NCBI GenBank assembly: GCA_030704615.1
Contig: CM060734.1
Location: forward strand, 53,010,001-53,074,000
DNA: 64,000 nt
From: Takakia lepidozioides
Taxonomy: Eukaryota > Plantae > Bryophyta
Direction: 5' to 3'
Shown piece by piece: positions 15,634 through 39,770 of the stretch (within the stretch, counting starts at the first letter, position 1; the number at the start of each line of letters is the position of its first letter). The position numbers were made by a program, and so were the translations under genes. The notes beneath the pieces were generated by a model, which had not been told where the DNA came from, did no database searches, and was given only the letters and a program-made list of their open reading frames with translations.

Positions 15634-15642
15634 TTTATATAG
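15634..15642 (-). promoter_or_regulatory. TATA box of the Gly/Pro-rich gene
   Basis: CTATATAAA ~115 bp upstream of the ATG, also present in copies at ~34380, ~45375 and ~63230. Confidence 0.6.
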
Positions 15643-17130: not shown

Positions 17131-17612
17131 AAGTATTGCAGTCCTTTGGATTGAGAATTGGTCGAACCCTCCTTGGGTGAAATCAGAGCTAGCTGCACGT
17201 CACGCACAACGAGGTGATGATTACACCATGGAGCTCCAGGCCAAGAATACAACAGGTTTTGTTTTGATGTTGATTATGCATTCTAACCTCAAATAAACAG
17301 AATTGGCACATGTCATATGCAATCTAGATGACTTTAGTAGTCTTTGCAACTTTGCGGACGCAACGTGGCCCTCCTTCCGCCAGAGCCGTTCTTATCCACG
17401 AGACGCCGGCGCCGAATTTCCATCCTGCAGGTCATTCGGAGCGGGGCCGGATGGAAATCCAGCGCCCAATTTCCATCCTGCAGGTAATTCGGAGCGAATT
17501 TTCATCCTGCAAGCAAAAAATTCCAAGCTTAGTGTGTACCCAGTCAAAAAATCGCGAAAAACTTGATGGAACGACTAAAAATTGTTGAAGAAGGGCTGAT
17601 ACGGGCATCTGC

Positions 17613-18702
17613 GGATGGAAATTCGGCGCCGTTTTTCCATCCGGGGGATGTTCTCTGTCGGCCAGGTGTCGGCCTCTCCCCCCGAGGCGACTTCATCCGT
17701 GCGCCCTCGGATGGAAATTCCGCGCCGTTTTCCATCCGGGGGATGTTCTCTGTCGGCCAGGTGTCGGCCTCTCCCCCCGAGACGACTTCATCCGTGCCCC
17801 CTCGGATGGAAATTCCGCGCCGTTTTTCCATCCAGGGGATGTTCTCTGTCGGCCAGGTGTCGGCCTCTCCCCCCGAGACGACTTCATCGGTGCGGCCTCG
17901 GATGGTAATTCGGCACCGTTTTTCCATCCGGGGGATGTTCTCTCTCGGCCAAGTGTCGGCCTCTCCCCCCGAGACAACTTCATCCAACGGGCCTCGGATG
18001 CAAATTCGGCGCCGTTTTTCCATCCGGGGGAAGTTCTCTGTCGGCCAGGTGTCGGCCTCTCCCCCCGAGACGACTTCATCGGTGCGGCCTCGGATGGAAA
18101 TTCGGCGCCGTTTTTCCATCCGGGGGATGTTCTCTGTTGGCCAGGTGTCGGCCTCTCCCCCGAGACGACTTCATCTGTGTGCCCTCGGATGGAAATTCGG
18201 CGCCGTTTGTCCATCCGGGGGATGTTCTCTGTCGGCAAGGTGTCGGCCTCTCCCCCCGAGACGACTTCATCGGTACGGCCTCGGATGGAAATTCGGCGCC
18301 GTTTTTCCATCCGGGGGATGTTCTCTGTCGGCCAGGTGTCGGCCTCTCCCCCTGAGACGACTTCATCCAACGGGCCTCGGATGGAAATTCGGCGCCGTTT
18401 TTCCATCCGGGGGAAATTCTCTGTCGGCCAGGTGTCGGCCTCTCCCCCCGAGACGACTTCATCCGTGCGCCCTCGGATGGAAATTCGCCGCCGTTTTTCT
18501 ATCCGGGGGATGTTCTCTGTCGGCCAGGTGTCGGCCTCTCCCCCCGAGACGACTTCATCCGTGCGCCCTCGGATGCAAATTCGGCGCCGTTTTTCCATCC
18601 GGGGGATGTTCTCTGTCGGCCAGGTGACGGACTCACCCCCGAGACGACTTCGTCCGACCGGCCTCGGATGCAAATTCGGCGCCGTTTTTCCATCCGGGGG
18701 AT
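17613..18702 (+). repeat. 96-bp GC-rich tandem repeat (~11 units), each with a 30-bp imperfect palindrome
   Basis: GGATGGAAATTCGGCGCCGTTTTTCCATCC recurs at 95-96 bp spacing (17613, 17709, 17804, 17900 ... 18666). Confidence 0.97.
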
Positions 18703-18959
18703 CTTCTGTGGCAGGCACGTGGGGCCGTCACCCTCCGATTGGACGTCCTGTCGAAGTAAATTCTGCGCCTCATTCCTGGGTACGGTTATATTAAATGGTG
18801 CTCTTTTCCTTTGCCACTTGCCCGACCTTCGCTCGTGACCCACGCGTTTCAAACCGAGACAACAACAACACTTCCTCGCTCCAAGCTCCTCATCTTCCCC
18901 ACACTCGCCCTTCCCTGCGCACCCTCTCTGCTTCCTGGCAGCCCTTTCAGTAGTCCTCG

Positions 18960-19510: not shown

Positions 19511-20018
19511 GCTTCTTGGTGAGGATAGTGCAACACGGGAAAAAATTCCCAACTTACCTGAGCATGGATGGCATGCATACTTTTGGCTTCCCTCAGCTTG
19601 TGAGGGCATGCATACTTGTCACAGTTCATTATTAATAAAAATGTCTCCCTTGAACCAAAGTTCCACTTTTTGCGCAATGTTGCATTTTGTTGTATGTTGA
19701 CTTTTGGCAGCCAGGGTTTGGCACTCAATCTTGTAATCAGACCCACTGGAATGCCACCTCTGTCAGTTCCCTCTGTCCATGGGGAAGGTGCTTGCACGCT
19801 CACCCCCCCACGCTTCTTGTCAGACGACGTAATGATTGGTTTGTGCAACGCATCTGCACAGGTCATATACCTTTTGCAAGCGACGAAGCCTATTCACGAA
19901 TCCGGGGAGCCCACTCTCCCGAAAATCCACTGTCAGAGAGTTAATGAACCTTGTCTGCGGAATGCGGCCCTTGGCCTTTGCGCAATAACTGCCAACGGTA
20001 TTTAGTCAGAAGGTATAC

Positions 20019-20591
20019 GCCGCACCGATGAAGTCGTCTCGGGGGAAGAGGCCGACACCTGGCCGACAGAGAATATCCCCCGGATGGAAAAACGGCGCCG
20101 AATTTCCATCCGAGGCCGCACCGATGAAGTCGTCTCGGGGGGAGAGGCCGACATCTGGCCGACAGAGAACATCCCCCGGATGGAAAAACGGCGCGGAATT
20201 TCCATCCGAGGGCGCACGGATGAAGTCGTCTCGGGGGGAGAGGCCGACACCTGGCCGACAGAGAACTTCCCCCAGATGGAAAAACGGCGCCAAATTTCCA
20301 TCCGAGGCCCGTTGGATGAAGTTGTCTCGGGGGGAGAGGCCGACACCTGGCCGAGAGAGAACATCCCCCGGATGGAAAAACGGTGCCGAATTACCATCCG
20401 AGGCCGCACCGATGAAGTCGTCTCGGGGGGAGAGGCCGACACCTGGCCGACAGAGAACATCCCCCGGATGGAAAAACGGCGCGGAATTTCCATCCGAGGG
20501 CGCACGGATGAAGTCGCCTCGGGGGGAGAGGCCGACACCTGGCCGACAGAGAACATCCCCCGGATGGAAAAACAGCGCCGAATTTCCATCC
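20019..20591 (-). repeat. 96-bp tandem repeat (~6 units), inverted relative to 17613-18702
   Basis: Reverse complement of the left array. Confidence 0.95.
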
Positions 20592-21584
20592 GCAGACGCC
20601 CGTATCGGCCCTTCTTCAACAATTTTTAGTCGTTCCATCAAGTTTTTCGCGTTTTTTTGACTGGGTACACACTAAGCTTGGAATTTTTTGCCTGCAGGAT
20701 CGAAATTCGCTCCGAATTACCTGCAGGATGGAAATTGGGCGCTGGATTTCCATCCGGCCCCGCTCCGAATGACCTGCAGGATGGAAATTCGACGCCGGCG
20801 TCTCGTGGATAAGAACGGCTCGGGCGGAAGGAGGGCCACGTTGCGTCCGCAAAGTTGCAAAGACTACTAAAGTCATCTAGATTGCATATGACATGTGCCA
20901 ATTCTGTTTATTTGAGGTTAGAATGCATAATCAACATCAAAACAAAACCTGTTGTATTCTTGGCCTGGAGCTCCATGGTGTAATCATCACCTCGTTGTGC
21001 GTGACGTGCAGCTAGCTCTGATTTCACCCAAGGAGGGTTCGACCAATTCTCAATCCAAAGGACTGCAATACTTATCTGTCTCTCGTGCAGGAGTGCATCA
21101 GAATGAAGGCCTTGCAGGAGCATGCCCACATTGTTCAAAGTGGATTGGAGCCAAGCATCTTTCTACTCAGCACCCTTGCCAAAATGTATGCCAAATGTGG
21201 GAGTGTTGTGGCTGCACGCCGAGTATTTGACAAAATGTCTCAACGAGATCTGTGTACATGGACAACAATGATGGCAGGATATGCCAAGCATAAATGCAAC
21301 GAGAGGGGGTCATGCCTGACAGAGTCACATTCATTTGTGTTCTCAGAGTGTGGCTAGCCTAGGAGCCCTGCAAAAGGGTAAAGACATCCATTATGACGTA
21401 ATCAAAGCTGGAATTGTGTCCTATGTAAACTTGGAGAATAGCCTTGTGGACATGGATGCCAATGTGGAAGCATGAGGGATGCCCATCACGTATTTGACAA
21501 TATGGCCAAACCAGATGTGGTATCATGGAATGCCAGGATAACAGGACATGCTCAACATGGTTGTGGCAGGGAGGCTTTCAATAT

Positions 21585-21931
21585 TGTCAAGTTAAATAAG
21601 CACAGTGTGAAAACAGCTAGAATAAAACTAGTTATTTGTATTTAACACTTGGATTTAGGTCAAGTGTTAAATCAGGTGTCAAGTTTAGTTTGACACCTGG
21701 TCTGTCTTATCTTCACGAGAGCGGCAGTCGCGCAGCTCATCTCTCTCGAGTTGAGCCTGCGCGACCGAGCTCCTTCATGCGTTTAGATCTGAGTGTGCTT
21801 ATGATGGGAGTGTAGGTTGTTGTGGGGTGGAGTCCCCATAGCTTGGGGTGCCCCTGGCTCGACTTCTATTTCTAAGAGTGATGGTTTGGTTTTCATGCTT
21901 TGCATCGTGTGTGTCTTTAGCTTGCTTATCA
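21585..21931 (+). repeat. Terminal repeat A1 (LTR lacking its first 86 bp)
   Basis: Identical to 33365-33709 except two 1-bp indels. Confidence 0.95.
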
Positions 21932-21944
21932 CTCGAGAGAGATG
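21931..21944 (+). promoter_or_regulatory. Putative self-priming PBS
   Basis: ACTCGAGAGAGATG at the LTR end is the exact reverse complement of 21738-21751; no TGG tRNA-type PBS is present. Confidence 0.65.
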
Positions 21945-22246
21945 TGACCTCTTATCTGTGAGTGCAAGGTAGGAGTTAAGGGTTAGCACTTGTATGATTA
22001 CCTGTGTGTAAGTAGTGCTTAGTTTGAGAAGCTTTTAAAAAAAAAACAAAAAAAAAACATGCAGGTTTCGATCATCTCTGGTTTCTGGGTATATAGATGG
22101 TCCATGGAGGCAGGCTGCATGTCAAGCAGGGGCAAAGAACTGGTGTCTTTCCACTGGTAAGGATAGCGTTGGTTCTGGCATGAGGCCGCAGGGGCAGGAC
22201 GGAGCTATACTGCGGGGAAGCAGCCTTTATTCTGGTCAGTGAGGGC

Positions 22247-22462
22247 GTGAACAACTCACAGTGGGTGCGGCAAGCATTGGCGAAGCCAGAGCTGGCCAGG
22301 CAAGTTCTTGATGTGAAACTGCTGAAGACCACAGGTATTGACAAACAGCTGCTGCAGCTGATGGATGTGGCCATGCTTTGCACACACGAGGTGCCTGATA
22401 GACGCCCCTCCATGCAAGACGTGCTAAAGGTGCTCATTGGAATCCAGCACCAGCAGCGATAA
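22247..22462 (+). pseudogene. Captured receptor-like kinase C-terminal fragment
   Basis: QLLQLMDVAMLCTHEVPDRRPSMQDVLKVL resembles kinase subdomain XI of LRR-RLKs. Confidence 0.7.
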
Positions 22463-22594
22463 AGGGAGGGGATGACTTATAGCATGGGAGCAGCTTGGTC
22501 ACCTATGAGTCTGTCCAGCGGAAGGAGCAACGCCGTCACGTTTGAAGTAGTAAGGGCTCGCTGGAAGCTAGATGTGCAGGGGATCAATACTGAT

Positions 22595-23340
22595 GCAGCA
22601 GTCATCCGATGATAGGGCCCACAAACGGCCACTAACTTTGCCAAGGCCTTCGTCCCAAAGCTGACGGCATCGTCAAGCTTGCCCTTGTCCAAAGCTGTTT
22701 TAGACGATTCCAATAATGTCCGCCGACTACAGATGAGCAAGCAACTTGCTGTAGATAGGAACCATGCTGATAATGTCAACTCTCTTGAATGGGGTGGGCG
22801 TATCCAATTCATAGTCTCGAGGAGAAACTTCAATCCCTACCTTGTGACAAAGACCTCGAAGTATAGCATATTTGCGGAGCTCAGAATGAGTGACCTCTGC
22901 AACAAGCCTCCAGCCAAAACTCTTGGTCACAAAAACCTCAACCCATCTCCTGAAGGCAATCACAGCTGATGAGAGCACCACTGTATATGACACAAAGGAC
23001 TGTTCTTATTGAAGCAGTGGGCCCAAGCTTCAGAATGGGGAAGAGATTCCTACTGTTGTGGTTGTGGGAAGACCAGCGTGAAGGGGTGGAAATGCCCTCA
23101 ATGTGAACAGCCTCCGCACTCTTCTTCACTTGAGTGCTAATGGACGAGCACGGCCTTCCTCCGATGCTGAAGAGGTAAAAAATGCTGGGGGCTTGGTTTA
23201 TACACTGTTGGCAAAGAGCCTGGTCAGGCTGGACCAAGAGGATGAGAACAAGGATGACAGGAGCATTCGGTGGGAGTTAGGAGCATGCTGGGTGCAGCAT
23301 TTGCAGACTCAGGTAGTAGCTAAGAAGGAAAAGGCTCAAA
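22595..23340. pseudogene. Captured fragments of a CLU-family (REC/TSS-like) TPR gene in both orientations
   Basis: Minus: [21 protein letters not shown] and [39 protein letters not shown]. Plus: NSLRTLLH and IRWELGACWVQHLQ. Confidence 0.75.
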
Positions 23341-23359
23341 CCAATGTTGAGGGAGGCCC

Positions 23360-23810
23360 ATCGAAGCAGTTTCAGGCACCTCAAGCACCAAGTCCTTCGT
23401 CACCATTGGATTTTCCTTCTCTGTCTGGGCTTGAAGCAGTGAATGGGTCAGCCCTTTCCAGCAGGGCAAGCACGCTTGGTGGGGAGTCTAGATCTGTCCC
23501 GGATTTTGCAGCAGTTGTAAGAAAGCAAGCAGCACAACAGGCTGCGCAGTTGCAATATGAGAGGAATGGCGGGGGTTGAACTGTCCCTAGGAGGAGTTCG
23601 AGGCCTTTCACAAGTGCCTGGAGTTGGTGGCTTTCCCCGAGATGCAAGGGTTGCTCATGGAGTAAGGTTGGAACCATACCACCTTCATGGTCATGATGTG
23701 TATCAACCTCCACCAAGTTGGCTCGAGATCGGGGACACTGTTGGAAGTATGTACACTGATCTGCAAGAAGAAGCTCGTGACCATGCTCGCCGCCATGCTT
23801 GGCTTTGATG
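23360..23810 (+). pseudogene. Captured fragment resembling plant CID7-like (PAM2/Smr) protein
   Basis: DFPSL, DFAAVVRK, WLEIGDTVGSMYTDLQEEARDHAR. Confidence 0.55.
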
Positions 23811-25709
23811 GCCCACAAACTCCGCTTGTGGTAGGTCTTTGATCGGCCGAATTGGCCAAACACCCCACACCACCTCCTTGTTCCTGCTTGCTCGCGTAGG
23901 CTTGGCCATCGCTGCCCTCGTCTGCGTCCGCTTTGCCTCTCTCCCTGAGCGATGGCGAGAAAGTATTTAAATACTGAAGTGAAAGTATTTAAATTCGTCC
24001 AGAAAGGTAACCCCAAAATCAGCACACAAAGTAAATGAGGTGCCTTCGTATAACTGGTATTCACTGATCCTGACAACTATTTTGGCATGAGTCTAAGGAA
24101 TTCTTAGGGAACCTGCAGTGAATCGCAAAAAACGTGGGAACAGTTTGATGGCGAGAACGTTTTGGGTGTGAAAAATTAAAAGAAATTCGTTCTTTGATCT
24201 AATTTAAATTAGATAGAGCCTGTTTGGCCATAACTTTGGCCTACCAAGGCCGTTTGACCCAAAACTTGCACAGGGACCTACAGAAAGGGGAAATCTACCT
24301 ATCTAAACCTGGTTTCTGTTTGGGGACTCTGCTAAAAATCTATGGAATTTTTTAGAGTGTGAGTGTGCCACGAATATCCACAATCCTGTTTCTAGAACCT
24401 GTGCTGGGCCTATATGAGAGACAAACCTGTGGATGTACTCCCTGTATGGCTGGGGGAAATGAGGACGTAATTGAAGGGCAGGTCTCTTCTCTTAGCCTGT
24501 GCACACAAGGGGACAGGATCTATGTTTCCCAAGGAACTCAGACTGATTTGAGTGGAGAACAGTTGGACGAGTTGATTGCATACTGGGAGTCAGGCATTAG
24601 CAGTAGACAACAGACTGCTGTAGTTGGCATTGAGGGCCTCAATATCGCCTTGGACAGTCAGAACTCTGTTGGAGCCAGCAGTTCTGCAGCTGTAGGTGAA
24701 ATACCAAAGTGGGTGAAAGCTAGGCTTGGAACACAGCCAAAGACAGCTCCGGGGACCAAGGTGTTCAGCCACAAGGCCGTGGGTGTACTGGAGCAGAGGA
24801 GCAGGAGCACAAGTTTGTGCAATTAGACAGTGTTGCAGACGCACGACACGCTCTGCACAAGGCAACACGAACGGGGGTTCATTAGCGAGGACAAGTTTGT
24901 TCTGTTTGAATGCAGTCATCCGCAATGAAGACACCCGCAACCGTCTCAAGCTTTCGAGTTGAGAGACTATCAGACCCTACCTTTGTTTCTTTAGTGTTCA
25001 GTGAGCGGGAGATAGGGAGTACTGCTTTGTCTCTACCTGGCAGAAAGAGGAGGAGGTTAGAGCGAGCTACTGTAGCTTGGGACAAGGTGGTAGTTGGGAC
25101 TGGCAGGTTCTGGACATAGATATACCTCCTACACCTTACCATCAAGCAGAGCGAGGCACTTTGAGAGAAGTCTGGAGTTGATAGCATAGATCAGGATTAG
25201 ATCTTGCTTGGGGGGGCTTCTATTCTTCCCCTCCATCTCTGTACTATTTTCATTACCTTGTACTTGTAGTTGCCAAAGCCTCTCTTGGTGGAGGCCAGTC
25301 AGTCCGGGGGTTTTGGGCTGGGATATTCTGCAGGATCAACATTGCAGCTGGATTGGTTGGTGGGGGTGTTGATGTTTTGATTTCTTGTGTTTGGATCCCC
25401 CCCAACACCTGCATGCTTGACTGTGCGCCATGTTGGTTTTGTTTGGGCGCTTGTCTTTCATAGGGATTAGGCCGGATTTGATCACCGGTCAATCCTAGAG
25501 TATGCTCGGTGGTGAGGCTGGAGTGATGACCAGCAAGACCACCAGTGTTTCTTCTATGGTGAGGCTGGGTTGATGACCAGCCAACCATAGGAGTTCTTGC
25601 GGTGGATGCAGGTGCAGGTGCCCTGAGCCATTGGGATATGACCCTTAGACTGCAACAGGTGCCCCACCCGTGTCACTATTAGATTAGTACTAGAGCCTTA
25701 TAGTGTCAC

Positions 25710-27305
25710 GTGGAGGAGGTGCACATTGTGAGTGTCATTACGGAGTTACCCAAGGGTTTTGAGGGGAGTACGGCTACAAGCAACAGTGAGAGTGGGTTCA
25801 CAAGACGAGGTATTCGGTTCAGACCACCTTCACCGCCACCCTCAACTACTGTAGAGTCAGACACAGACTCGGAGGCTTCATCAACAGGTGTGCACTTTCA
25901 TTCGCCATTGTTGTGGGACGACATGGAGGAGATGTATGGAGCTACCAAGGGGCCTCGTAGGTACTCTGGAGCTGTGGGCACAATCGAGTTGGATGACTTT
26001 ATCCAGGAGTTCGACAGCTGGTGTGATTTGCAGCAGATGCGCAATCCACAGCTATTCACCCCATTCATGGCGTGGAAGGGACTGTTCCAGCATTTGGAAG
26101 GCCCGCCTATGGACGATTACCACGAGTTCAGGCGAGGACATGAAGCAGAGAGATGAGGAGTGGAGGATGTATTGGTCACCTGACTACGTCTCCATTACTC
26201 GAGGCACGACGCGACCCAGTAGCTGCATCAGTACCAATAGCTCCCACTGCCAGCACTAGTAGTGGAGCAAGTAGTGCTGGTACTTCTGAGGTGGTACCAG
26301 TTCAAAAGGTGCTCTCCTGCCACGACTACAACACATGTGCCTAGATTCAACCCGGTGGTGGAGTTCTTCCAGGAGTTGCGGAGGAACTACCAAGGTGTAC
26401 GGACAGAGAAGCTGCGAAGTTTGCAAGACTTCCAGCGCAAACCCAGTGAGAGCCTGCGAGAGGCGTACACTCGTATGAGGCGCTTGATAAGTGTGACCCA
26501 AGGGGTTACTGAAGCTCAGGCAATCCAGTTTTGGTATGGAATTCTGGACAAGGAGCTCAAGAGAAGGGTGCGAGATGCAACCCTGTTACAAGCAGCCCAA
26601 CCCACATTAGCAGATGTGTTTCTGCTGGCTGAGCGGATTGAGCTCAACATGGTGGAGGAGCGAGTTGTTACAATTGGATTTGGCAAGGACATGCCTGTAC
26701 GGGGCACAGCTGTCAGCCCACAAGCACAAGGGACTGCCCAACAGCGTGGTCAGGGGGGCAAGGTTGCCCAGCCCAAGTTCCATGGAGCTTACAGGGGACC
26801 TCAGGTGCAGAGGCCCGTGGCATCTTTTGCAGGCCAACAGCAACCAGGGGTGATATGTTGGACATGTGGAGGACCCCATGTCAAGAGAGATTGCCCAGAG
26901 AGTGGCAGAAGGCCGGCACAAGCACAGCCTGCACAGTTGCAGTGTGGGCATTGTGGCAAGTATGGGCATGGAGATGCCCAGTGTTATGACTTGCATCCTG
27001 AGTTGCGCCCAGGCCAGTTCCAAGGGAACAATGGTGGCCGGGGGCGAGGTGGACCAGCCCAAAGAGGACGAGGTGGTCGGGCACGAGGTGCAGGCCAAGG
27101 GCAAGCTCCACATGGCCAAGGACGCGGAGGTCAGGGTGTTGACCAAGGCATGGCCAATCGGCTTCAGCAGCTAGAGCAGAGGCTCGCTGCCATGGCTATA
27201 GCTCAGGCGGTACCGGCTCCCAGGCGGGATGGTCCACCTCCTGCTCCTGAGGGAGGAGATATGGGGGAGGAATGGGATTCATGTGCGGAGCAGCACTACC
27301 ACTAG
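25710..27305 (+). CDS. Gag (frameshifts near 26150-26330)
   Basis: IELDDFIQEFDSW, FQRKPSESLREAYTRM, knuckles CWTCGGPHVKRDC and CGHCGKYGHGDAQC, RGG-rich tail. Confidence 0.85.
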
Positions 27306-27801
27306 AGCAGGTGGAGTCTGCTGCAGCCGTGACTCGAGGAGCAGCACGAGTTCCTGAGCCACGAGGTGCAGAGGTGGAGTTGGATCCACAACGTGGGGAG
27401 GCAAGCCGTCAGGCAAGGCTGCCTCAGTCATTCACCTTGGCGGAGACAGTGTCAACGCCATCCATGGCACCTAGTTCTCGCCCGACTGTTACCGAGGCGG
27501 AGGTTACTATGCCATTGGGGAGAGCTACCGTGCAGCTGACACCTGCTACCAAGGCTAGTGCAGCCGGTGTGTTATTGGGGCAGCCACCTCTGTGTGTCAA
27601 GCCCCACTGTTCTCGGCACCATGATTGCGACGCCGGGGTGAGACCAGCTGCAGTGTTCAGACTAGCAGCAACACTCTGTGAGAGTGGAGAGGTCACTTCA
27701 TCTTCTGCGGAGTTAGTGGAAGGTGTAGTAGTGGCAGAGGGATCCTCGGATTTGAGGGTCAAGACTGCCACGGCAGCGCCTGGCAAGCTGCAGCTGCCAG
27801 A

Positions 27802-28341
27802 TTGACGGAGCTGCCAGCTAGGCCAGCCTTTGAGCGCGCCATGGTGACACCTGGAGTTGTCTTGTTAGACAACCAGGGAGGCATTTTCACTTTGAGTGGA
27901 CCGGCAGGCAAGAAGTACCGGCCACTGCGGGTCTTGTTGGACTCAGGAGCTCAGCCACTGATGTTGGGCAGAGCTGCTATTGCAGGTTTGGGCCTCATGG
28001 AGGCGGATATGGAGCCTTGTCCTTTCCAGATACAGACATCTCTGGGAGGATCAGAGCAGGCTCGCGGCATGACACGGCATCAGTTGGCTATTAGACTGCA
28101 GCCGGATCATCCTGTAGATGGCTCAGTGATGCGAGCCAAGGCCATTGTGACAGACGCGGTCTCTTACGATGTCCTCGTTGGTGGGGCAGTGTTATACCCC
28201 ATGGGCTTCACCCTGGATTTCTGGGAGGAGTCAGCATCCTACAGGCCTGGATGGCAGTCAGGGGATGGTCGCCGTGCACAGCTCCCTGTGACATTCATTG
28301 GGGGTATTGCAGCTGCCAGCGGGGCAAGATGCCAACACTAG
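27802..28341 (+). CDS. Aspartic protease
   Basis: VLLDSGAQP active site; YDVLVGGAVL. Confidence 0.85.
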   Translation: MTELPARPAFERAMVTPGVVLLDNQGGIFTLSGPAGKKYRPLRVLLDSGAQPLMLGRAAIAGLGLMEADMEPCPFQIQTSLGGSEQARGMTRHQLAIRLQPDHPVDGSVMRAKAIVTDAVSYDVLVGGAVLYPMGFTLDFWEESASYRPGWQSGDGRRAQLPVTFIGGIAAASGARCQH

Positions 28342-28639
28342 CCGCCTTCACAGCTGCAGTAGCTGGCCTGGAGAGTTGCTGGAAGGCAATGCCATGCAGA
28401 GGATGTGCCACCTCCAGCAGAGCAGGATGACATGCATGGTACGGCGGAGTTGCCTGCCATGGTTGCTCACACTCCGTTGTGGGGTACGAGCAAGGATTTG
28501 CAGCAGCTGCTGATGGACGGGTGCAACAAGCTTGGGTAGAAGCTTTTGTACCGTCAGGAGAGGAGGAGAGTGCGGTGATTGCACCAGGGCCACCTCAGTT
28601 GTCGCCATTGGACACCACACCTCTTGTGTGGCAGCCCGG

Positions 28640-29600
28640 ATGAAGGCATATGCCTTCTGGACTTTTGGCGGGATCAGCACTGGATTGGCTGCAGTGCTGC
28701 AGGCAGGTGTACGAGTTCGACGTTACCTGTATGTGGAGAGGGATGAGACTGCACGACGCGTCTCACTGCGCCATGTGCTCAGATGGTGCAGCAGCACCCT
28801 GAGTTGTTGCCGGTGTCTGCAGTTCGTGGATATCAGCAGGCCTTGCCAGCAGACATTTCGTTGCTGGGGGCGCAGGATTTGGAGCGGGTTGGCTCCATTG
28901 ATCTGGTAGTGGCAGGTTGGCCCTGCCAAGGGCATTCATCAGCCGGGCATGGCAATGGATTGCGAGACTCGAGGACGGGTCTGTTTTGGGAGATGGTGCG
29001 GATTTTGCGCCACTTGCAGCTTCATCAGCTGTATCTCCGGCATACATCTTGGAGAATGTGCCACTGATGGTGATTCTCGGGCCAGGGTGATGGCCAGTGT
29101 GCATCAAGTCCGGTCGTGGCTTGGGTCAGCAGTATTGCTGGATGCAGCTGCAGTGGGGTCACGGGCTCATCGTCCACGACTATGGTGGACTAACTTGATG
29201 CCACCCGCACTGCTCAAGCGTGCATTTGATGGGGTGCAGCGGCCAGCACACCTCACCGTGGATGGCATTTTGGACACAGGAAGGCAGTCTCAACGTGTGA
29301 GACACGATGACCGTTCGCCTTTGGCAGTGGTCAACAGGGTGGGTCAACCACGAGCAGCATTACCTACACTGCTCAGCTTCCCAGGATCCCATGCTTTTCG
29401 GGATGGTGGACCTGGCCTCCTGTGGGATGCTCAGTTGCAGCAGTTAGTGGAGCCTAATGCCGACGAGCGAGAGCGGGCTATGGGGTTTTCCACTGGGACC
29501 ACGGCGGTGCCTTCTCTTTCTGAGGCATCACGTCGTCAGGTGTTGGGGCAAGCAATGGATCTCAATTGCTTGACCTGGATTGTCAGCTTGGCTATGGCTG
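28640..29600 (+). CDS. C5-cytosine DNA methyltransferase domain (DNMT3-like motifs; several frameshifts as assembled)
   Basis: Motif I LLD/FGGISTG; II YVERD; III ADI; IV DLVVAGWPCQ (PCQ at 28921-28929); VI ILENVP (ENV at 29052-29060); VIII AHRPRLWWTN; IX ERERAMGF; X RRQVLGQAM. Confidence 0.9.
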
Positions 29601-29878
29601 AGCAACGTAGAGTGCGGAGTGCACTTCCCTTGATGGTCTCTCTGCCTACCGAGACGGTACAGGCAGCGAGTGGGGGCGAGCGGTGAGGACCACGAGGTGT
29701 AGACATCCATGGCACATGTGGGAGGTGCTCGAGGTTCAGAGGGAGTTGGCAGCGAAGGCAGCTGTGATGGATGAGGTTGGGGATTCTTCTCGGGATGAGG
29801 AGGTTCTCAATGATGAGATGATGGGGCAGGATGAGGCCTTGTCATTGACTGAGCAGGAAGGGGGTACTGCTCAAGAGG

Positions 29879-31290
29879 TTGCAGCATAGCAACCACGGGA
29901 CGCGTCCTACCTCTAAGCCCACTGGACTTAAGGTTGCAGTTACGGAGGACAATTGGGAGCCTGACATTGGACCCATTGTCACCGGAGGAGAGAGACGACG
30001 TATACGGCGGTTCCTGAGGGCTTACAGGAATTGCTTTGCCTTCAGTTTGAAGGACTTGGGAGCACTGAAGGGTCAAGAGATCCGTATTGAGTTGGCCACT
30101 GACACGCCAATCTTTCGGAGACCCTATAGATACAGTGACATGGAGAGGTCTTTGATTCAGATGAGGACTCAAGATCTCTGGGAGGCAGGTTTGGTGGAGC
30201 TCTCTGGTGGAGAGTATGCTTCAGCCACAGTGATGCCAGCTAAGAAGGATGTCTATGGCAATTGGACGGAGAGACGTATGTGCGGTGATTACCGGCCTGT
30301 AAATCGTCAGACCAAGTCCGATAGGTATGCCATGCCAACACCAGAGGAGATCTTTGATGCCATTGGGCATTCCAAGGTCTTTAGCACGTTGGATTTACGA
30401 TCCGGATATCACCAGTTGCCGATCAAGGAGGCGGATAAGCAAAAGACGGCATTCTGGGGGATCAATGAGCACGGGAAGGATTGCCTATACCAGTGGCGGT
30501 TCTTACCATTTGGGCTTAAAAACGCTCCCGCTGAGTTTCAAAGAGTCATGGACAGGATTCTAGCAGGGGTGGAGTTTGCTCGGTGCTACATAGATGACAT
30601 CATCATCTTTAGTGCTACGGTGGAGGAGCATGAGAGACACCTTCAGGGGGTATTTGAGCGCTTGAGGACGCACGGATTGAAGTTACATCCGGGCAAGTGC
30701 AAGTTTTTCCACAACCAGATTGAGTATCTGGGTCACATGATATATCCTGGAGGATTGGGGGTACAGCAGACTAAGGTAGAGTCCATTGCACAGGTTCCAC
30801 GCCCCACGGATGTGAGCCGAGTTCGAGCTTTCATGGGGTTAGCAAACTATTACAGACGGTTTGTTAAGGGATTTAGTGCCATTGCAAAGGCTCTAACCAA
30901 GCTGACCAAGGTGGACCAGGAGTGGCAGTGGGAAGATGAGCAAGAACAAGCTTTTCAAGAGCTCAAGGCGAGGTTGACCTCGGCGCCCATCTTGAGACGA
31001 CCTATCAGGGGGCGTCCTTTTCAGCTGCATACAGATTGGAGCATGCTGGGGCTTGGAGCGGTGCTCACACAGGTGGATGATGAGGGAAGAGAGTTCGTAG
31101 TGGCTTATGCTAGCCGCTCGAACAATGCTGCAGAGTCTAAGTATAGCTCATATGAGGGAGAATGCTTAGCTGCAGTGTGGGCCGTGGCACACTTCAGGTG
31201 CTATTTATACGGCAATCTCTTCACCCTTGTCACGGATCACCAACCACTCAAGTGGTTGATGGAGTCAGACAAGCTTACGGGAAGCTTGCA
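29879..31290 (+). CDS. Reverse transcriptase + RNase H
   Basis: RMCGDYRPVN, TLDLRSGYHQL, LPFGLKNAP, YIDD, LHTDWSMLGLGAVL, VTDHQPL. Confidence 0.97.
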
Positions 31291-32850
31291 CGGTGGGCAC
31301 TCATCCTTCAAGAGTATGACTTTCAGGTGGTGCATCGACCGGGTTTGGTCAATCGAAATGCAGATGGGTTGAGTCGCAATCCATGCACGAGCCAGCAGGA
31401 TGACACTGGAGCTCGGTGGCATGGTGAGACGGACGAGGAGATGGTGCCCGGATGGCATGCATCTGCATTTCTGTGTATCTTGGCAGCGGAAGGCCAGGTT
31501 GGACCTACAACAGGGATGACTGTAGATCAAGTGTCTGAGGACCCTGAGGCCAGCAATGAGCAGGGTGGCGCCAAAGATATACATGAGGATTCAGTTGTGT
31601 TGGACTACCTCCGCAGTGGAGACACGGCAGCCACTATGACTGCCAAGGAGAGGGATCGGATCCTACAACGAGCCAAGAGGTTCAGGTGGGAGGGGACACA
31701 CCTGCTCCGAGTGTGGGAGGATGGTCGAGTGAGGATTGTGCCTCACCCAACACAGCGGGCACGGTTAGTGCGGCATGCCCATGAGGAGTTGGGGCATTTT
31801 GGGGTGCGACGCACTCATAGTCTACTGCAGGGGCAGTATTGGTGGCGTGGTATGCACACAGAGGTGCAACAATTTGTGGCTAGGTGCATGGTGTGTGACA
31901 GGGTGCGTGCTTCATTCAACGCCCCTACTCCACAATTGCACCCTCTTCCGATCATGGGATTGGGCTACAGGTGGAGTCTTGACTTCGCAGGGCCGTTGCC
32001 ACTGACCATGCGCCACAACAAGTACGTGTTGGTGATGGTGGAGCACTTCTCCAAGTGGATTGAATTGGTTCCATTGCCTGATAAGGCTAGTGAGGGAGCT
32101 GCGTATGCATTCCTGGATTGTGTGCTTAGCCGATTCGGTGCTCCAGCTGAGGTACTCACGGACCAAGGGAGAGAGTTCTTGGGGGAGTTTCAGGCTTTGT
32201 GTGACAAGGCCTTGATAGACCACCGCACCACTTCTCGGGATCATCCTGAAGCCGATGGCTTGGCAGAGAGAGTTGTTCAGACAGTAAAGAGGGGTTTGCG
32301 CAAGTATGGCTTGCAGAAGGGACACCTAGGAGATTGGGACCTTCAGTTACCCTGTTAGCCATGGGCTACAGGTTCAGCAAGCAAGCATCACTTGCCTCCT
32401 TCTCACCATACTTTCTTCTCTTTGGCCGAGAGCCGGATTTGCCTACATCCATTCGCAGAGAAGCTGCTACAGTTCTTAACCTTGACGATCCGGACGTGTG
32501 GGCACGTGCATGTGAGCAGCGTGCAGAGTTGTTCAAGAGAGTCATGCCTATGGCTTTCGAGAACCTTGCCATTGCACAACACCGTGATACGTTGAGGTAT
32601 GCTACCATACGTGGTGGGGGCTATCGTCCTGGGGTTCGGAGATTCAACCCTGGTGACTATGTCTATCTGCAGCAGACTGCTCCTACGACCCTGGATGTGA
32701 CTGCAGGACGTGTTATTTTGAGGGTTCGAGAGGTCTTGCCCTCAGGCGTCTTGGTCTTGGAGGGTCGGGATGGCATCACTTGGAAGGACCATGTGCGTAA
32801 TTGTGCGCCATGTCACCTTCCGAATGTCGATGGCAGGATTGACCCAAAAC
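31290..32850 (+). CDS. DDE integrase (frameshift near 32355)
   Basis: HHCC zinc motif (HEELGH...CMVC), WSLDFAGPL, TDQGREF, AERVVQTVK, SPYFLLFGRE, FNPGDYVY. Confidence 0.95.
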
Positions 32851-32877
32851 CTGGCAGTGGTATCTGCAGGTTTGAGG

Positions 32878-33021
32878 TGCATGTTGTGTGGGTCTGCTAA
32901 AGGGGCAGCCACCATGCTGGTATGTGATCGGTGCTCTAGAGGTTGGCATATGGGATGCTTGACTCCACCTCTTGAGATGGTTCCGGATGGGGATTGGTTA
33001 TGTCCACATTGCATTGGATAG
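32878..33021 (+). CDS. C-terminal PHD finger of the integrase
   Basis: CMLC...MLVCDRCSRGWHMGCLTPPLEMVPDGDWLCPHC is a canonical C4HC3 PHD. Confidence 0.92.
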   Translation, partial: CMLCGSAKGAATMLVCDRCSRGWHMGCLTPPLEMVPDGDWLCPHCIG

Positions 33022-33268
33022 TGGGAGTGGATACAACCATGGGAGGCTAACAAGAAACGCAAGGCCCAGCTACTAGGAGACCTTGAACACACGAGATCTT
33101 GGCTCAAGTTCATAGATTGCAAGACGGCGACTAACGATGGGGCTACTCTTGTACCCGGCCTCTTGGTTATAGAGTTTGAGCACGATAAGACAGTGATAGA
33201 GGACTTAGTACGGCTGTGGCTATTACATCTTGTAGCTATCTGGAGGTAGAGGGACCTATCCACCAGCT

Positions 33269-33278
33269 AGGGGGCGAT
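33269..33278 (+). promoter_or_regulatory. Polypurine tract-like sequence
   Basis: AGGGGGCGAT directly before the TG at 33279. Confidence 0.6.
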
Positions 33279-33709
33279 TGTGCTAGACTACTTTATTGTG
33301 CATATATGTGTGGTGTGGTTGGACAGCGATGTAGTTGTGTAGCGATATGTATGCGCACGACAGCTGTCAAGTTAAATAAGCACAGTGTGAAAACAGCTAG
33401 AATAAAACTAGTTATTTGTATTTAACACTTGGATTTAGGTCAAGTGTTAAATCAGGTGTCAAGTTTAGTTTGACACCTGGTCTGTCTTATCTTCACGAGA
33501 GCGGCAGTCGCGCAGCTCATCTCTCTCGAGTTGAGCCTGCGCGACCGAGCTCCTTCATGCGTTTAGATCTGAGTGTGCTTATGATGGGAGTGTAGGTTGT
33601 TGTGGGGTGGAGTCCCCATAGCTTGGGGTGCCCCTGGCTCGACTTCTATTCTAAGAGTGATGGTTTGGTTTTCATGCTTTGCATCGTGTTGTCTTTAGCT
33701 TGCTTATCA
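33279..33709 (+). repeat. Complete LTR (B1 33279-33362, GC, A2 33365-33709)
   Basis: TG...CA bounded, follows the PPT, and its 3' end coincides with the A1 end. Confidence 0.85.
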
Positions 33710-33710
33710 T

Positions 33711-33795
33711 TGTGCTAGACTACTTTATTGTGCATATATGTGTGGTGTGGTCTGGACAGCGATGTAGTTGTGTAGCGATATGTATGCGCACGACA
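33711..33795 (+). repeat. Terminal repeat B2 (first ~85 bp of LTR repeated after the complete LTR)
   Basis: Matches 33279-33362 with one 1-bp indel. Confidence 0.95.
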
Positions 33796-34501
33796 ATATC
33801 TATGAACAAATGCAACAAACAGGTGTGAAGCCCGACAGGGTCACATTTCGTTTGTGTTATCAATGCTTTTGCCAGCCTAGGAGCCTTGGAAATGGGGAAG
33901 TCATCCATGGTGACATTATTAAAGTTGGAATTGCACCATATATAAATTTGGAGACTGTCCTTGTTGACATGTACGCCAAATGCGGGAGCATGAGGGATGC
34001 GCAACAAGTATTTGACAGTATGGCTAAGCGAAATGTGGTCTCATGGAGTGTGATGATAGCAGGATATGCCCAACATGGGTTTGGTAGGGAGGGCTGTCCA
34101 CGAGCAGGTGCAATAGGAGGGGGTGAAGCCCAACAAGGTCAATTTCATTTGTGTTCTCAATGCATGTTCCAGCCTAGGAGCCCTAGAAAAGGGCAGAGAG
34201 GTCCGACATCACATCTAAATTTGGAGAAAGAAAGAAAAGAAAAGAAAAAAACAAGAAAACTGAGTCCGAAGACTTTTCTTTTTCTTTTTTTAAGAAAAGA
34301 AAAATCTGTGGACACTACTATAGTGCCCAACAGCAGCTATGTTTATCAGTATGCTGCTTAAGGCCTTGGCCTTCAGTCACTATATAAAACTAAGTCTTGG
34401 AGCGGCTTACCAACAACTTGTGTGTGCGTCTGCGTGATCTTGCTATAGAGTTGGGAAGAGAGGAAGAGGTTTAGGTCCAGCTAAAGGATTGATTGCTTGC
34501 A

Positions 34502-35664
34502 ATGAAGACTGTGCAACAAATTTGTATGGTGCCTTCCCTCTTGTTTCTGATTTTGTTAATAGGGAGTGTGCAAGCTGCAAGTGAAGGTGTTGGGAACAAG
34601 CATGATTCAGAGGGTGTAGTGCTAGGTGATTTGGACCTCAACAACAAAGCTAGTGATCCTAGTCCTTTGAGTAGTTTTGGGCCTTCTGTTGGTCATGATC
34701 TTGGAGCCCTAGGAAGTCCTCTAGGGCCCGATGGTGATGGTTCTCAGAGTAGAAATCCAAGCGATGAAGGAATTCCTGATGGAGGTATTGGCAATAACCT
34801 CAATAGTAGTGAAAAAAGTCATGGAAGATTTGGACATGTCGGAGATTATCCCAATATCGGCGGCCTCGGTCCAAGATTTCCCAGTGATGGCCTTGATCCC
34901 AGCTTCCCAGGAGTGTGGCCTTCCAGGATATCCCAGTGGTGGCTTCCCAGGATATCCCAGTGGCGGAGGAGGAGGAAGTATTGGTCATTTCGGAGGTGAT
35001 CCCGGTTTGTTTCCCGGCGGCGCGGTAGTCGAGGATTTCCCAGTGGTGGCTTTCCAGGATATCCGAGTGTTGGCTTTCCAGGACATCCCATTGGTGGCTT
35101 TCCAGGATATCCCAGTGGTGGCTTTCCAGGACATCCCAGTGTCGGAGGAGGAAGTATTGGACATTTCGGAGGTGATCCCAGTTTGTTTCCCGGCGGCGGC
35201 AGTCCAGGATTTCCCAGTGGTGGCTTCCCAGGATATCCCAGTGGTGGCTTTCTAGGACATCCCATTGGTGGCTTTGGAGGATATCCCAGTGGTGGTTTTC
35301 CAGGATTTCCCGGTGTGCCTCCTCTAGAAGCTATGGCATCGGCAAGCGGGTATGGTAATATGAAGTACTTCGACGCTAAACATCCATTCCTAGGCCATCC
35401 TCCTCCATTTGGAAGTTTTGGACATTTCGGAGGTTATCCCGATTTGTTCCCCGGCGGCGGCGGTACGGGACTTCCCAATGGTGGCTTTCCAGGACATCCC
35501 AGTGGCGTAGGTTTGTTTCCCCCGGCGGCGGTCTAGGATTTCCCATTGGTGGCTTTCCAAGATATCCCAGCGGTGGCGTTCCCGTTGTGCCTCCTCCACA
35601 AGCTGCGACATGTGCAAGTACTGGTTATGGTAATGAGGTTTATTGCGTTACTAATCATCCATAG
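34502..35664 (+). pseudogene. Gly/Pro-rich gene copy 2 (frameshifted as assembled)
   Basis: Inverted copy of 14390-15520 with indels near 34895-35025 and 35520. Confidence 0.85.
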
Positions 35665-36834
35665 TACCATTCTCCTCAGTTAGAAACTATGGCATGGGCA
35701 AGTGGTCATGGTTATCCATGATTTCAGTAGAAGGACTAGGATGGATTCCACATCAGACCCTTCAAGGCTGCAAGATTGCCTAGTCTGCACAGAAGTGTAG
35801 CTAGTTGAAACATCCAAATTTTTTCGATCTTGTATGTCAGCCATTTCATTTGAATGAATCAAAAATGGTCATGGACTGAGTTTTCTTTCCCTACAGTCAC
35901 TGTTGTATGCTTGTTGACGATGGTCATTGGTCTCGATCACTAGAAAGCAAGCGATATTAGAGTAGATTTGTACAATAGATTTTCAAAATCCTTTTTTGTT
36001 TTCTTTGTTTTTTTTAGCCAAAAAAGTGGCGACAATGATGTGGCGATGATGACATGGTGACCATGATGTGTCACTATGGCATCCTATTCCAGCCCTACAC
36101 TAAAACTAGTATCCCACCTTTAGTCGTCACTAGAATAATACATATATCACAAGGCCCCCTGAGGGGAATAATATAGGCACAGGGGCTGGCCTTAGGGGGT
36201 GGGGATTTGACTGCGGGCCCTGCCAGGGGCATCCAGTCTTGAAGGATAGATCAGAGGGACAGGGGCTGCTGGTTGCTCTAGGCTGATTCAAGTCCCTGTA
36301 CTAGATGTTCAACTGGCATTTGTCTGCCATCCCTACACTGCTTTGTACTAGGGGGGAATACGGACCGGGAATGTGGTTGAGAAGGGGGGATTTTTGTCTT
36401 TGGGATAAGTGATGGGAAGGCAGCCATCTAATGAGGGGAGCAAACCTCAAATACATTTTCCCATAATAGCTACTGCAGTCACATTTGTTCTTGGACATTG
36501 TACAATGGCAATATGGGTTCTTTCCGATGTGGTTTCTTCCACGAAAATTTTGAAGATGATTTGCCAATCTTCTATGCTTCCTATGCAAATCCAATTTTGC
36601 ATTGCCAACACTTATGCCAAGCCAGACTGATTTCCACTCCAAAGATATCTGTGTCAGATGTAAAGTCTCTCCCACTCCCTCTTCCTTCAGTGTGGTCAGG
36701 AAAGCCAGTGAGGCCTAAATAGTCACTCAAACAGGGTCAGCAAACCTGACACAAGGAACGCCTAATGCATAGATAACCTGGACAGTAGAGGCTGAAGAAT
36801 GCAAACCTGGTGAAACCAAAACGACCAACCTAAA

Positions 36835-38289
36835 TCATTGTGCAAACAGACTTGACATGTTCTCTACTTCAATTCTAGATTTCCGGATGTCATCATGGAC
36901 CTGTTTCCCTTTTCCGAGAGCTCTGAGGCTGGCGCATGCATTGAGAATACAAGTGGATGTGACCATGTCGGGCGTCACCCCATCCTGTTGCATTTTCTCA
37001 TAGATCTTGAAAGCTTCCATAGCATCCCCATGCTGAGCATATCCTGCTACCAACGAACTCCACGAGACCACATCTCGTTTAGCCATACTGGCGAACACTT
37101 CACTTGACGCGCCTTCTTCATGCTGCCGCATTTTGCATACATGTCGATAAGGCTATTCTCCAAATTGATATAGGACGCAATCCCAACTTTCATGGTGTCA
37201 GCATGCACCTCTTTGCCCTTTTCCAGGGCTCCTAGGCTGGAACACGCATTGAGAACACAAACAAACGTGACTGTGTTGGCTCTCACCCCTGCTTGTTGCA
37301 TTTGCCTGTACATCTGGAAAGCCTCCCTCCCAAACCCATGACGAGCATATCTTGCTATCAATGCACTTCAGGTGACCACATCTCGTGTAGCCATATTATC
37401 AAACACTTGCTGGGCATCTTTCATGCTTTGCGCATTTTGCATACATGTCAACAAGTGTCAAGAGTATTCTCCAAATTTATATATGACATAATTCCAGCTT
37501 TGATGATGTCAGCATGGACCTACTGGCCCTTCTACAAATCTCCTAAGCTAGCATATGCATTGAGAACACAAATGAATGTGACCCTGTTTGGCATCATCCC
37601 TTCCTGTTGCATTTGCTCCTAGATCTTCAAAGCTTCCCTACCACACCCATGCTGAGCATATCCACGGCACTCCATGAAACCATATCTCGCTTATATTATC
37701 AAACACTTGTTGCGCATCCTTCATGACCCCACATTTGGCATACATGTCCACAAGGCTATTCTCCAGGTTTAAATATGACTTTATTCCATGTCTCCTAGGC
37801 TGGCACATGTTTTGAGACCGCAGATGAAGGTGATCCTGTCAGGGGTCACCCTTTCTCATTGCATTTGCTCATAGATTTTGAAGGCATCCTAGGCATGCTC
37901 ATGCTTGGCATAGCCTGCCATCATCCCCCAGTCCATGTAAGCAAATCTCGTTGTCAAACACTTGACGTGCATCCACCAAGCTACCGCAGTTGACATACAT
38001 TGACAAGGGTATTGAGTAGATATACTATTGGCTTGCATCCACTTTGGATAATGTAGAAATGCACCTGCTTCCCTTGTGCTAGGTTTTTCATGTTCATACA
38101 TTCCTGCAAGAGAACGACATATGTATTCCAGTACGCTCGAATGCCTTGTTGGCTTAAGATGTGGTGCACATCTTTCAGTCGTCCTGCCTTACATAGAATC
38201 CTAACATACTGACAAGTGCCAGAGAGGGAACTACCCCTGCCGCCAGTCTCTTGTCCCAAAAACATCTCCGCCTCATTCAACCCTGCCAT
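36835..38289 (-). pseudogene. PPR pseudogene A, copy 2
   Basis: Same fragments as 7439-8790 plus the 3' end. Confidence 0.9.
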
Positions 38290-38799
38290 TCTGCATGACT
38301 CAAAACTCTAAATCAAACCTTCAACCTCAAGTGCAACTTGTATTATACACCTAGATGCTTTTAAGAAATATGTACTGATGAGGGCCTTTGCGCATAATTA
38401 CAGTTATAAAACTAGCCAGACATGGTCATTGAGCATAATCTGTACCAAGCACATCTACTCACGTTAAACCTGAATCGTCATCTAAACAATACCCAATGTA
38501 TTCTTGGACGGGAACGCCATGGTGTGCATTGACATAACAACCATGGGATGTCATTGCCAGCTGAAGCTAACCAACCCAAGAGAAAGAAAAGATAGAATCT
38601 AAGACATGAAGATGCACACTTGCTCCTGCATACAAAGAACAAAACATTAGGATTACATGAAATGGCATACCAGTGGGCATTGATAATGTTGTTGTAAACG
38701 AAACATTAGGGGGGTGTGCCCTCACTCTTTGCTCTCTGAAACCAGTGTGTTCTGCAGCACTTTCCACATCCCCAAACACAAGACTACGCTTCGTTCAGC

Positions 38800-39770
38800 C
38801 ATATCATCAAACACTTGACGTGCCCCTTTCATGTGCCCACATTTGGCATACATGTTAACAAGGGTATTTTCCAGAGTTATGAAAGACGCAATTCCAGATT
38901 TCATGAGTCATCATGGACCTCTTTGCCCTTTTCCAGGTCGTAGGCTGGCACACGCATTGACAACCGAAATGAATGTGACCTTGTTGGGCATCACTGCTTC
39001 CCGTATCATTTGCTCATACAATTGGAGAGCCTCCTTACCCCATCCATGTTGAGCATATCCTGAGATTCACATTCCATGAGACCACATCTCGTTCATCCAT
39101 AGTGTCAAACACACTACGTGCATTTCTTATGCTCCCACATTTAACATACATGGCAACAAGGGCAGTGCCAAGAATGACATCTGACACAATTCCAGCCGTG
39201 ACGATGTTAGCATGGAGTCTGGATCTCCTTGCCCTTATCCAGCTCTCCTAAACTGGCACACTCCTTGACAACAGAAATGAACGTAACCTTGTTGGGTGTC
39301 ATCCCTTCCTGCATCATTTGCTGATAGACCTCAGAGGCCTCCCTAACACATCCATATTTCACATATCCTGCCATCATCGTAGTCCATGTAAACACATCAC
39401 GTTTAGGGATCGTGTCAAACAAATGGCATGCATCCACCACGCTTCCACACGTCACATACATGTTGACAAGGGTGTTGAGTACAAATAAGTTCGGCGTGTA
39501 TTTACTTTGAATAATGTGGGTGTGCACCTGCTTTCCCCTTTCGAGGTCTCTAGTTTTGATGCACTCCTGCAAGGTACAATGAGTCTGGCCAAACGTCTTG
39601 TTTGTTCAGAATGTACAGCGCCTCTTTCAGCTCTCCTGCCTTACATAGTGTCCTCACATCCTCAAAAGTGCCAGAAAAGTTGTTGACAATCCGCTCCCTT
39701 GCTCCTTTCCAAAGGAGTGATCTGGCGGAAGTTCTTGACTCCAACAATTGCATCTGATTCAATCCTGCCA
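38800..39770 (-). pseudogene. PPR pseudogene B, copy 2
   Basis: Matches 9300-10290. Confidence 0.9.

Follow-up and report, generated by a model that had tools for sequence, protein, structure and literature searches.

A DNMT3-type cytosine methyltransferase within a split-repeat Ty3/Gypsy retrotransposon of the bryophyte Takakia lepidozioides

The window analyzed here, a stretch of 64,000 nucleotides from the bryophyte Takakia lepidozioides, contains a 12.2-kb Ty3/Gypsy retrotransposon (21585-33795) with TG...CA ends, whose features are described below on the plus strand. Pfam matches place its domains in the order Gag, protease (PR), DNA methyltransferase (DNMT), reverse transcriptase (RT), RNase H (RH), integrase (IN), and PHD finger, with the Gag and protease matches lying below the cut-off. 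The PR-RT-RH-IN order with a DDE integrase, together with the TG...CA ends and a short target-site duplication, is that of Ty3/Gypsy elements. The duplication is the tetranucleotide ATAT, present on the left at 21581-21584 inside a PPR-type repeat and again on the right at 33796-33799, and three paralogous empty PPR-type sites on the minus strand (near 16620, 16230, and 63835) carry ATAT once. An arrangement with two identical terminal LTRs was rejected, as the repeats are split in the form A...B-A-B, an exception common to the KnitGypsy-Dnmt3 element discussed below. Repeat A1 (21585-21931, 347 nt) starts with TG and forms the 5′ end. Close to the 3′ end, repeat comparison identified B1 (33278-33362, ending in GACA), followed by A2 (33365-33709, 99.4% identity to A1) and B2 (33709-33795, 98.9% to B1), which forms the 3′ end and ends in CA. 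B1 is joined to A2 by the palindrome GACAGCTGTC (33359-33368), whose halves are the right and left ends of the element. A purine-rich tract directly before B1 (33266-33277), likely the plus-strand primer, lies in the same place ahead of B in relatives. Since A1 and A2 differ by only two 1-nt indels, the insertion is young.

The coding region of this copy is interrupted by frame breaks. Gag with zinc knuckles (25924-27300; PF03732, E = 0.0018, below cut-off; 46% to homologous protein P0090) is frame-broken and is followed by an aspartic protease (27919-28140; PF13975, E = 0.0087, below cut-off) with an LLDSGA motif common to homologues, and by the methyltransferase domain (28640-29635). Beyond an amber codon lie RT and RNase H (29948-31370; PF00078, E = 9.5e-33; PF17919, E = 1.3e-33), broken near 31280, and the DDE integrase (31747-32850; PF17921, E = 1.1e-16; PF00665, E = 1.6e-14), broken near 32350 and 32850 and made up of a zinc finger (31747-31911), a core (31966-32247), and a C-terminal part. 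A PHD finger (32878-33012; PF00628, E = 1e-11) ends the integrase. Upstream of Gag, the stretch 22068-24237, whose limits are those of depth bins and to which no strand was assigned, is a low-depth insertion holding host gene fragments, among them a CLU/REC-type fragment at 23100-23330 whose top matches are in Sphagnum (60%) and Physcomitrium (55%); together with the PPR arrays beside the element, this points to a bryophyte and likely a moss as host. In DNA runs X1 and X2, contigs over the element were about a thousandfold deeper than over this stretch, and in X6 about a hundredfold, a contrast that gives no copy number. It agrees with a large family and singles out 22068-24237 as a low-copy insertion, which is likely absent from the typical family member. 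An A-rich run (22036-22060) precedes this insertion. A second Gypsy element in the window (790-4819, minus strand) encodes Gag, protease, RT, and RNase H and has an acidic spacer, with no methyltransferase, between protease and RT.

The initial annotation had placed a set of C5-methyltransferase motifs in canonical order between protease and RT, and reading of the sequence confirmed them: FGGISTG from 28664, PCQ at 28921-28929, ENV at 29052-29060, RAHRPRLWWTNL from 29162, ERAMGF at 29471-29488, and LGQAMD at 29543-29560. In C5 methyltransferases, these are known as motifs I, IV (PC), VI (ENV), VIII (RxR), IX, and X; the whole set lies within 28664-29566, spread over three frames. A profile search recovered the domain in four pieces (28664-28780; 28774-29028, E = 3e-39; 29022-29069; 29069-29635, E = 2e-108) and thereby indicated four breaks within the catalytic domain, near 28664, 28778, 29026, and 29068. 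The annotation had counted the lack of a PF00145 match as evidence against itself, and such a match was obtained without any frame repair at 28747-29064 (E = 2.1e-11; 44.2 bits, the cut-off being 22). Taken alone, the pieces 28514-28906 and 28910-29683 had no Pfam match. There are hints that the four breaks may include assembly errors. Contigs from other copies carried single-base indels at 29068, 29680, 31278, 32353, and 32846 (among the matches listed, 12 of 141), the differences between A1 and A2 are all indels, and host duplicates in the window are gap-rich, for example with 25 gap openings against 41 mismatches. A 2173-nt contig from run X5, guessed to be RNA, spanned 29516-31684 with two other letters, and 29012-29445 had no cover in that run, which was counted neither way. 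A weak ZSWIM8 match at 29611-29886 (E = 0.0004, below cut-off) was set aside.

The assignment of the domain to the DNMT3 type, also suggested at the outset, was supported by two comparisons. The closest solved structure for a profile of 24 family members was DNMT3A (E = 1.4e-21), with DNMT3C and DNMT3B next, and the same profile reached 2e-9 with DRM-type, 9e-7 with bacterial, and 2e-5 with DNMT2 enzymes. DNMT3A/B were likewise the top structural matches of a model of homologue P0010, itself of moderate quality (pLDDT 63; 129 of 398 residues below 50). The motifs run from I to X without permutation, and therefore the domain is not a DRM. Judged by its sequence, the window domain is of the DNMT3 type.

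The domain is widely shared. Its C-terminal piece matched 85 longer proteins, the best being from Calypogeia fissa (74%) and Marchantia polymorpha (about 70%), with Sphagnum and Spirogloea also among the organisms, and a profile search yielded 525 clusters (50%-identity representatives) at E = 1e-30 or better, the family including Closterium, Tetraselmis, Haematococcus, K. nitens, and Mesostigma. Homologues occupy the same element position in Marchantia, Calypogeia, Sphagnum, Closterium, and Klebsormidium; the initial annotation's own caveat, that the domain might be an out-of-frame capture private to this copy, thus fell away. In a DNMT tree of 199 rows (thinned at 75% identity from 268 family domains), the window piece grouped with Marchantia, Calypogeia, Sphagnum, and four further rows with a support of 0.998. 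In a FastTree phylogeny of 166 RT rows, the window grouped with Marchantia and the related loci L055, L014, L020, and L025 at 0.98, within a clade including Klebsormidium, Closterium, Tetraselmis, and Haematococcus that was separated from angiosperm and animal Gypsy elements at 0.93; both tree sets were picked by similarity to the query and are free of host DNMTs and reference lineages. The wide range, which takes in Mesostigma, Klebsormidium, Closterium, bryophytes, Tetraselmis, and Haematococcus, suggests that the domain was acquired early and not within the Klebsormidium lineage. Two scans of viral contigs found no relative.

The catalytic Cys is present in 260 of the 268 family domains, the Glu in 265, and each of the motif VIII arginines in 259. 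In 101 of 268 domains, EC replaces PC, with Glu for Pro before the Cys. Where dS could be estimated, DNMT dN/dS between lineages was 0.06-0.18 (several distant pairs were saturated), including 0.09 and 0.14 for the window against L055 and 0.14 and 0.06 for the unsaturated pair L075/L077, in which RT gave 0.05. Decayed Sphagnum-like copies gave DNMT values of 0.31-0.81, apart from a single value of 3.8 obtained on 79 codons, and RT values of 0.39-0.59; as RT decays alike in the same pairs, the decay followed insertion. The family DNMT is under purifying selection. Among 408 proteins, the DNMT stands either after the protease, with 63 proteins ending there, or between RNase H and integrase, 42 proteins showing the complete order RT-RH-DNMT-IN-PHD. 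A large sister group (P0075, P0063, P0066, P0073, and P0197) has the latter arrangement, and the domain has therefore moved within the polyprotein at least once.

The position of the enzyme between protease and RT, as initially annotated, was borne out, but its placement within pol proper was not: the domain ends the Gag-PR frame, and an amber stop precedes RT. This codon (29887-29889) is followed by CAA CCA (29887-29895 in all), is conserved in relatives, and has RT in the same frame behind it. Many homologous proteins stop about 100-135 residues past motif X. Among 80 loci, which are the best 80 of 270 and biased to one Sphagnum-like family, the stop site was covered in 62 and read TAG in 44, TAA in 16, and TAC in 2; the stop is followed by CAA CCC, one base off the consensus, at 57 of the 62 sites in the Sphagnum-like family. 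The probe used for this count missed five divergent loci, which were read singly: TAG CAA CCA in L055, TAG CAA TCA in L074, TAG CAG TTA in L075 and L077, and TAG TAG CCA in L079. The pattern TAG CAR YYA is thus found in the window, L055, L074, L075, and L077, with Pro, Ser, or Leu as the second codon; bases that are kept while the encoded residue varies point to an RNA signal. UAG CAR YYA is the readthrough context of the tobacco mosaic virus (TMV) type (PMC2754532), identical here in the stop codon and six-base 3′ context, with the difference that the predicted site of the window would split Gag-PR-DNMT from RT in a retrotransposon. An intact version of this plan was found in L077, with 1369 open codons, one TAG, and then 1047 open codons in frame. 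In the relatives P0114 (2811 aa), P0079, and Closterium P0170, the DNMT runs into RT without a stop. We consider it very probable that the amber codon would end translation for most ribosomes, RT-RH-IN-PHD being made by the minority that read past it. The DNMT would then be made at the level of Gag, and RT and integrase at a fraction of that level.

The initial annotation was right about a land-plant host. The element is no peculiarity of a single plant and belongs to an old green-lineage clade that includes a published element of Klebsormidium nitens. This element, KnitGypsy-Dnmt3 (de Mendoza et al. 2018, PMC5890265), shares with the window the same Gypsy domains, a non-permuted, intronless DNMT3-type domain in the Gypsy polyprotein region, purifying selection on the DNMT, and a DIRS-like repeat layout (Fig. 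4c legend). In the RT tree, the K. nitens proteins belong to the same clade as the window. Gene model KFL_013780020, whose DNMT shares 45% identity with the window piece, ends in protease and DNMT, and RT is in the next-numbered model, on a contig of equal length; we infer that KFL_013780010/20 is the element of PMC5890265. The two differ in that KnitGypsy-Dnmt3 comes from an alga and is stated to have DNMT and RT in one ORF, whereas the window copy comes from a land plant and has an amber stop between them; the K. nitens gene models are split as well. The PHD finger, self-priming, and palindromic junction of the window are absent from the text of PMC5890265 compared here, in which "PHD" has 0 occurrences (figure images and supplementary figures lie outside this comparison), and its main text describes a K. 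nitens-lineage acquisition and DIRS-like repeats, without mention of Marchantia. Judging from these sequence comparisons, the window would add to elements of this kind a land-plant range, a predicted readthrough control, self-priming, and a palindromic end junction. In the literature covered, in which most subscription papers are missing, we found no report of such elements in bryophytes, of the readthrough site, or of self-priming. PMC12344493 and bioRxiv 10.64898/2026.05.21.726589 refer to streptophyte DNMT3 retrotransposons, and their supplementary trees may include bryophyte members.

Three other groups of elements invite comparison. The chromovirus Tcn1, found in mosses and club-mosses, and the Tf1/Sushi chromoviruses (Neumann et al. 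2019, PMC6317226) also replace the tRNA primer by self-priming and end the integrase with a chromatin reader; in the window, however, the reader is a PHD finger and not a chromodomain, and DNMT and split repeats are added. With a PHD finger in place of the chromodomain, the element does not match a Tcn1 chromovirus; our RT tree was built without a Tcn1 reference. DIRS elements, including SymbioDIRS-Dnmt3, have the A1...B1-A2-B2 layout in common with the window (the two A and two B repeats are spelled out for DIRS in the review file of PMC5890265), but the window element has a DDE integrase, TG...CA ends, and a 4-bp target duplication. Membership in the DIRS order was rejected, with an rve integrase present and no tyrosine recombinase found by Pfam in the frames scanned. 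Finally, the EpiLTRs of Cymbomonas and Euglena (bioRxiv 10.64898/2026.05.21.726589) combine an LTR element with a cytosine methyltransferase and a chromatin reader, as here, although their DNMT is sister to DNMT4, is accompanied by DAM and a chromodomain, and is called distinct from streptophyte Gypsy-DNMT3.

The element's ends bear on how the split repeats may arise. The arrangement A...B-A-B was found in five of the loci with both ends visible (L015, L053, L054, L065, and L068); nested elements were rejected as its source because the repeats interleave and recur in relatives. A predicted self-primer and transcript start inside A1 (21738-21751) is a 14-nt perfect complement of the primer-binding site directly after A1 (21931-21944), as would be expected for self-priming of the Tf1/Tcn1 type (PMC6317226). 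The pairing had a fold z of -4.85, and 0 of 200 shuffles were as strong. Six relatives were examined, of which three had a complement of at least 10 nt (17 nt in L065, 11 nt in L053, and 10 nt in L002) and the other three had none of at least 9 nt. Transcription very likely starts inside A1, with the first 13-14 nt priming the minus strand. The B|A palindrome GACAGCTGTC is kept in the Sphagnum-like family and in the distant L074 and L077, and at the A2|B2 junction, the primer-defined ends are joined precisely in the window and in four of the five relatives listed, L068 having extra bases. Distinct 3′ ends read B-A in 7 cases and ended after B in 11 (the count omits one copy located at a contig end and another on the reverse strand), and B stood before A at none of 16 distinct 5′ ends. 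Target duplications of 4 nt were exact in five of eight distinct insertions and one transition off in three; a 5-bp duplication, which fits five of nine insertions, was rejected in favor of 4 bp, which fits all nine when a single mismatch is allowed.

What is inserted is thus normal cDNA in circularly permuted form, produced by a DDE integrase. We give roughly even weight to the possibility that the cDNA ends are joined, forming A2|B2, and that the integrase then cuts the internal B|A palindrome to leave the permuted repeats. A plain two-LTR circle cut at either palindrome also predicts the form A-B-A...B, which was seen in 0 of 16 cases; the absence of this mirror form makes an unbiased two-LTR circle too simple. 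L017, L022, L025, L043, L057, and L071 end after B without A2-B2, and the three of these with both ends seen have 4-nt duplications. Such copies may come from B1-B2 recombination or one-LTR circles and, lacking a 3′ A, would be dead ends.

The PHD finger may indicate where these insertions are directed. Its nearest solved counterparts are those of CHD4, PHF12, KDM5B/KDM5A, and ATXR5, with likeness also to PHF21A and BAZ2. The fingers of KDM5, CHD4, PHF21A, and BAZ2 are readers of unmodified H3, and the Gly followed by an aromatic residue before the His, which is present in 103 of 113 family PHDs, is unlike K4me3 readers. Likeness and pattern together make targeting to silent chromatin plausible, and we think that the finger probably reads unmodified histone H3 tails and steers insertion there. 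PHD and DNMT co-occur throughout the clade. PHD fingers are also common in Chlamydomonas elements (PMC8557442).

Modestly favored here is that the window contains a recent, frame-broken copy of the KnitGypsy-Dnmt3 kind, in which the DNMT, ending the Gag-protease frame, was likely made at the level of Gag and packaged and would methylate the element's own cDNA. The cycle could proceed as follows: (i) the transcript would start inside A1, its own first 13-14 nt priming the minus strand; (ii) the amber stop would hold most ribosomes, and readthrough by a minority would yield RT-RH-IN-PHD; (iii) the DNMT, at the level of Gag, would likely be packaged in the particle; (iv) the primer-defined cDNA ends would be joined (A2|B2) and the B|A palindrome cut by the integrase, giving permuted repeats; (v) the PHD finger would bind unmodified H3 tails and so bring insertion into silent chromatin; and (vi) the methyltransferase would act on the cDNA no later than insertion, probably at CG, and each new copy would thus bring a self-made, heritable mark. 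Step (vi) we regard as about evenly poised. Methylation of the element's own cDNA in the particle is preferred since expression at the level of Gag would put the enzyme where cDNA is made, and it appears to be the likeliest role. Expression at the level of Gag cannot apply to the 42 of 408 proteins in which the DNMT stands between RNase H and integrase. A footprint of extra methylation in the form of CG depletion was not found when the element was compared with the DNMT-less Gypsy at 790-4819, which served as the control within the window: CG observed/expected was 0.57 against 0.41 in RT-RH and 0.33 against 0.41 in gag. De novo CG methylation has been shown for the SymbioDIRS DNMT3; the KnitGypsy-Dnmt3 domain gave no DNA methylation in yeast, a result its authors called inconclusive (PMC5890265).

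An active enzyme could instead work on host chromatin: carried along in the integration complex, it would methylate DNA near the insertion site or at other places, the PHD finger guiding it much as the ADD domain guides animal DNMT3. The co-occurrence of PHD and DNMT across the clade, the likeness of the finger to readers of unmodified H3, and the 42 of 408 proteins in which DNMT adjoins integrase in one chain would all suit such a role. In the window's own branch, however, the stop divides the DNMT, grouped with Gag, from the PHD finger, grouped with the integrase, the protease would be expected to separate the two, and the K. nitens methylome is ordinary and plant-like (PMC5890265), so that we regard this role as unlikely. 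The enzyme could also serve replication other than by epigenetic marking, by methylating or binding RNA, an RNA:DNA hybrid, or the att palindrome and thus governing end joining or the choice of cut. The odd ends and the DNMT do travel together from Klebsormidium (PMC5890265, Fig. 4c legend) to bryophytes, many Sphagnum-like copies, as well as the window, L074, and L077, have a CG immediately within their right end, and there is no general loss of CG; the closest structures are nevertheless those of DNA-acting DNMT3, far above DNMT2 (E = 1e-21 against 2e-5), and we hold such a role to be improbable. That the domain is a mere passenger, either a host DNMT3 captured without benefit to the element or a capture that happened once, in this copy, would agree with its four breaks and the raised dN/dS of the decayed Sphagnum-like copies but is largely refuted, and in our view very improbable, given the parallel RT decay after insertion, between-lineage dN/dS below 0.2, the 525 homologous clusters, and nearly invariant catalytic residues.

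Returning to self-methylation of the cDNA, a wider reading is offered only tentatively, namely that an ancient Gypsy lineage present throughout green plants and abundant in bryophytes, including Marchantia, carries a DNMT3 writer loaded by readthrough, methylates its cDNA before contact with the host, is aimed by a PHD finger, and integrates in a way so far undescribed among LTR elements, through joined cDNA ends and the cutting of an internal palindrome by a DDE integrase. If this were true, self-methylation would become testable in a genetic model. Since 2018 it has been a puzzle that a retrotransposon should retain the very enzyme with which hosts silence it, and the puzzle persists partly because the known carriers are algae that are hard to manipulate; the homologues in Marchantia polymorpha make it approachable in a plant for which CRISPR and methylation mutants are available. 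From the conserved stop, both the site and the amount of enzyme production can be predicted, and the combination of split repeats and a DDE integrase suggests a mode of integration that awaits explanation. Such elements may escape LTR finders built on two equal repeats, and element-borne DNMT domains can inflate counts of host DNMT genes.

Elsewhere in the window, the region 47000-54000 is GC-richer, with a CG observed/expected of 0.75 and several ORFs of 200-295 codons, four of which were scanned and had no Pfam match, and an assembly gap of 500 N lies at 42282-42781. Glycine/proline-rich ORFs occur on the minus strand near 14393-15529, 44110-45270, and 61890-63125; one was scanned, with no Pfam match. 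PPR arrays (PF01535) flank the methyltransferase element, and two inverted arrays of a 96-nt tandem repeat (17612-18747 and 19931-20688) lie beside a duplicated PPR block. Segmental duplicates at 7439-16900, 33796-42281, and 54171-64000 are 96-99% alike and occur in both orientations, the duplicated unit containing degenerate PPR arrays along with a glycine/proline-rich protein, which has a hydrophobic N-terminus and 24-nt repeats.
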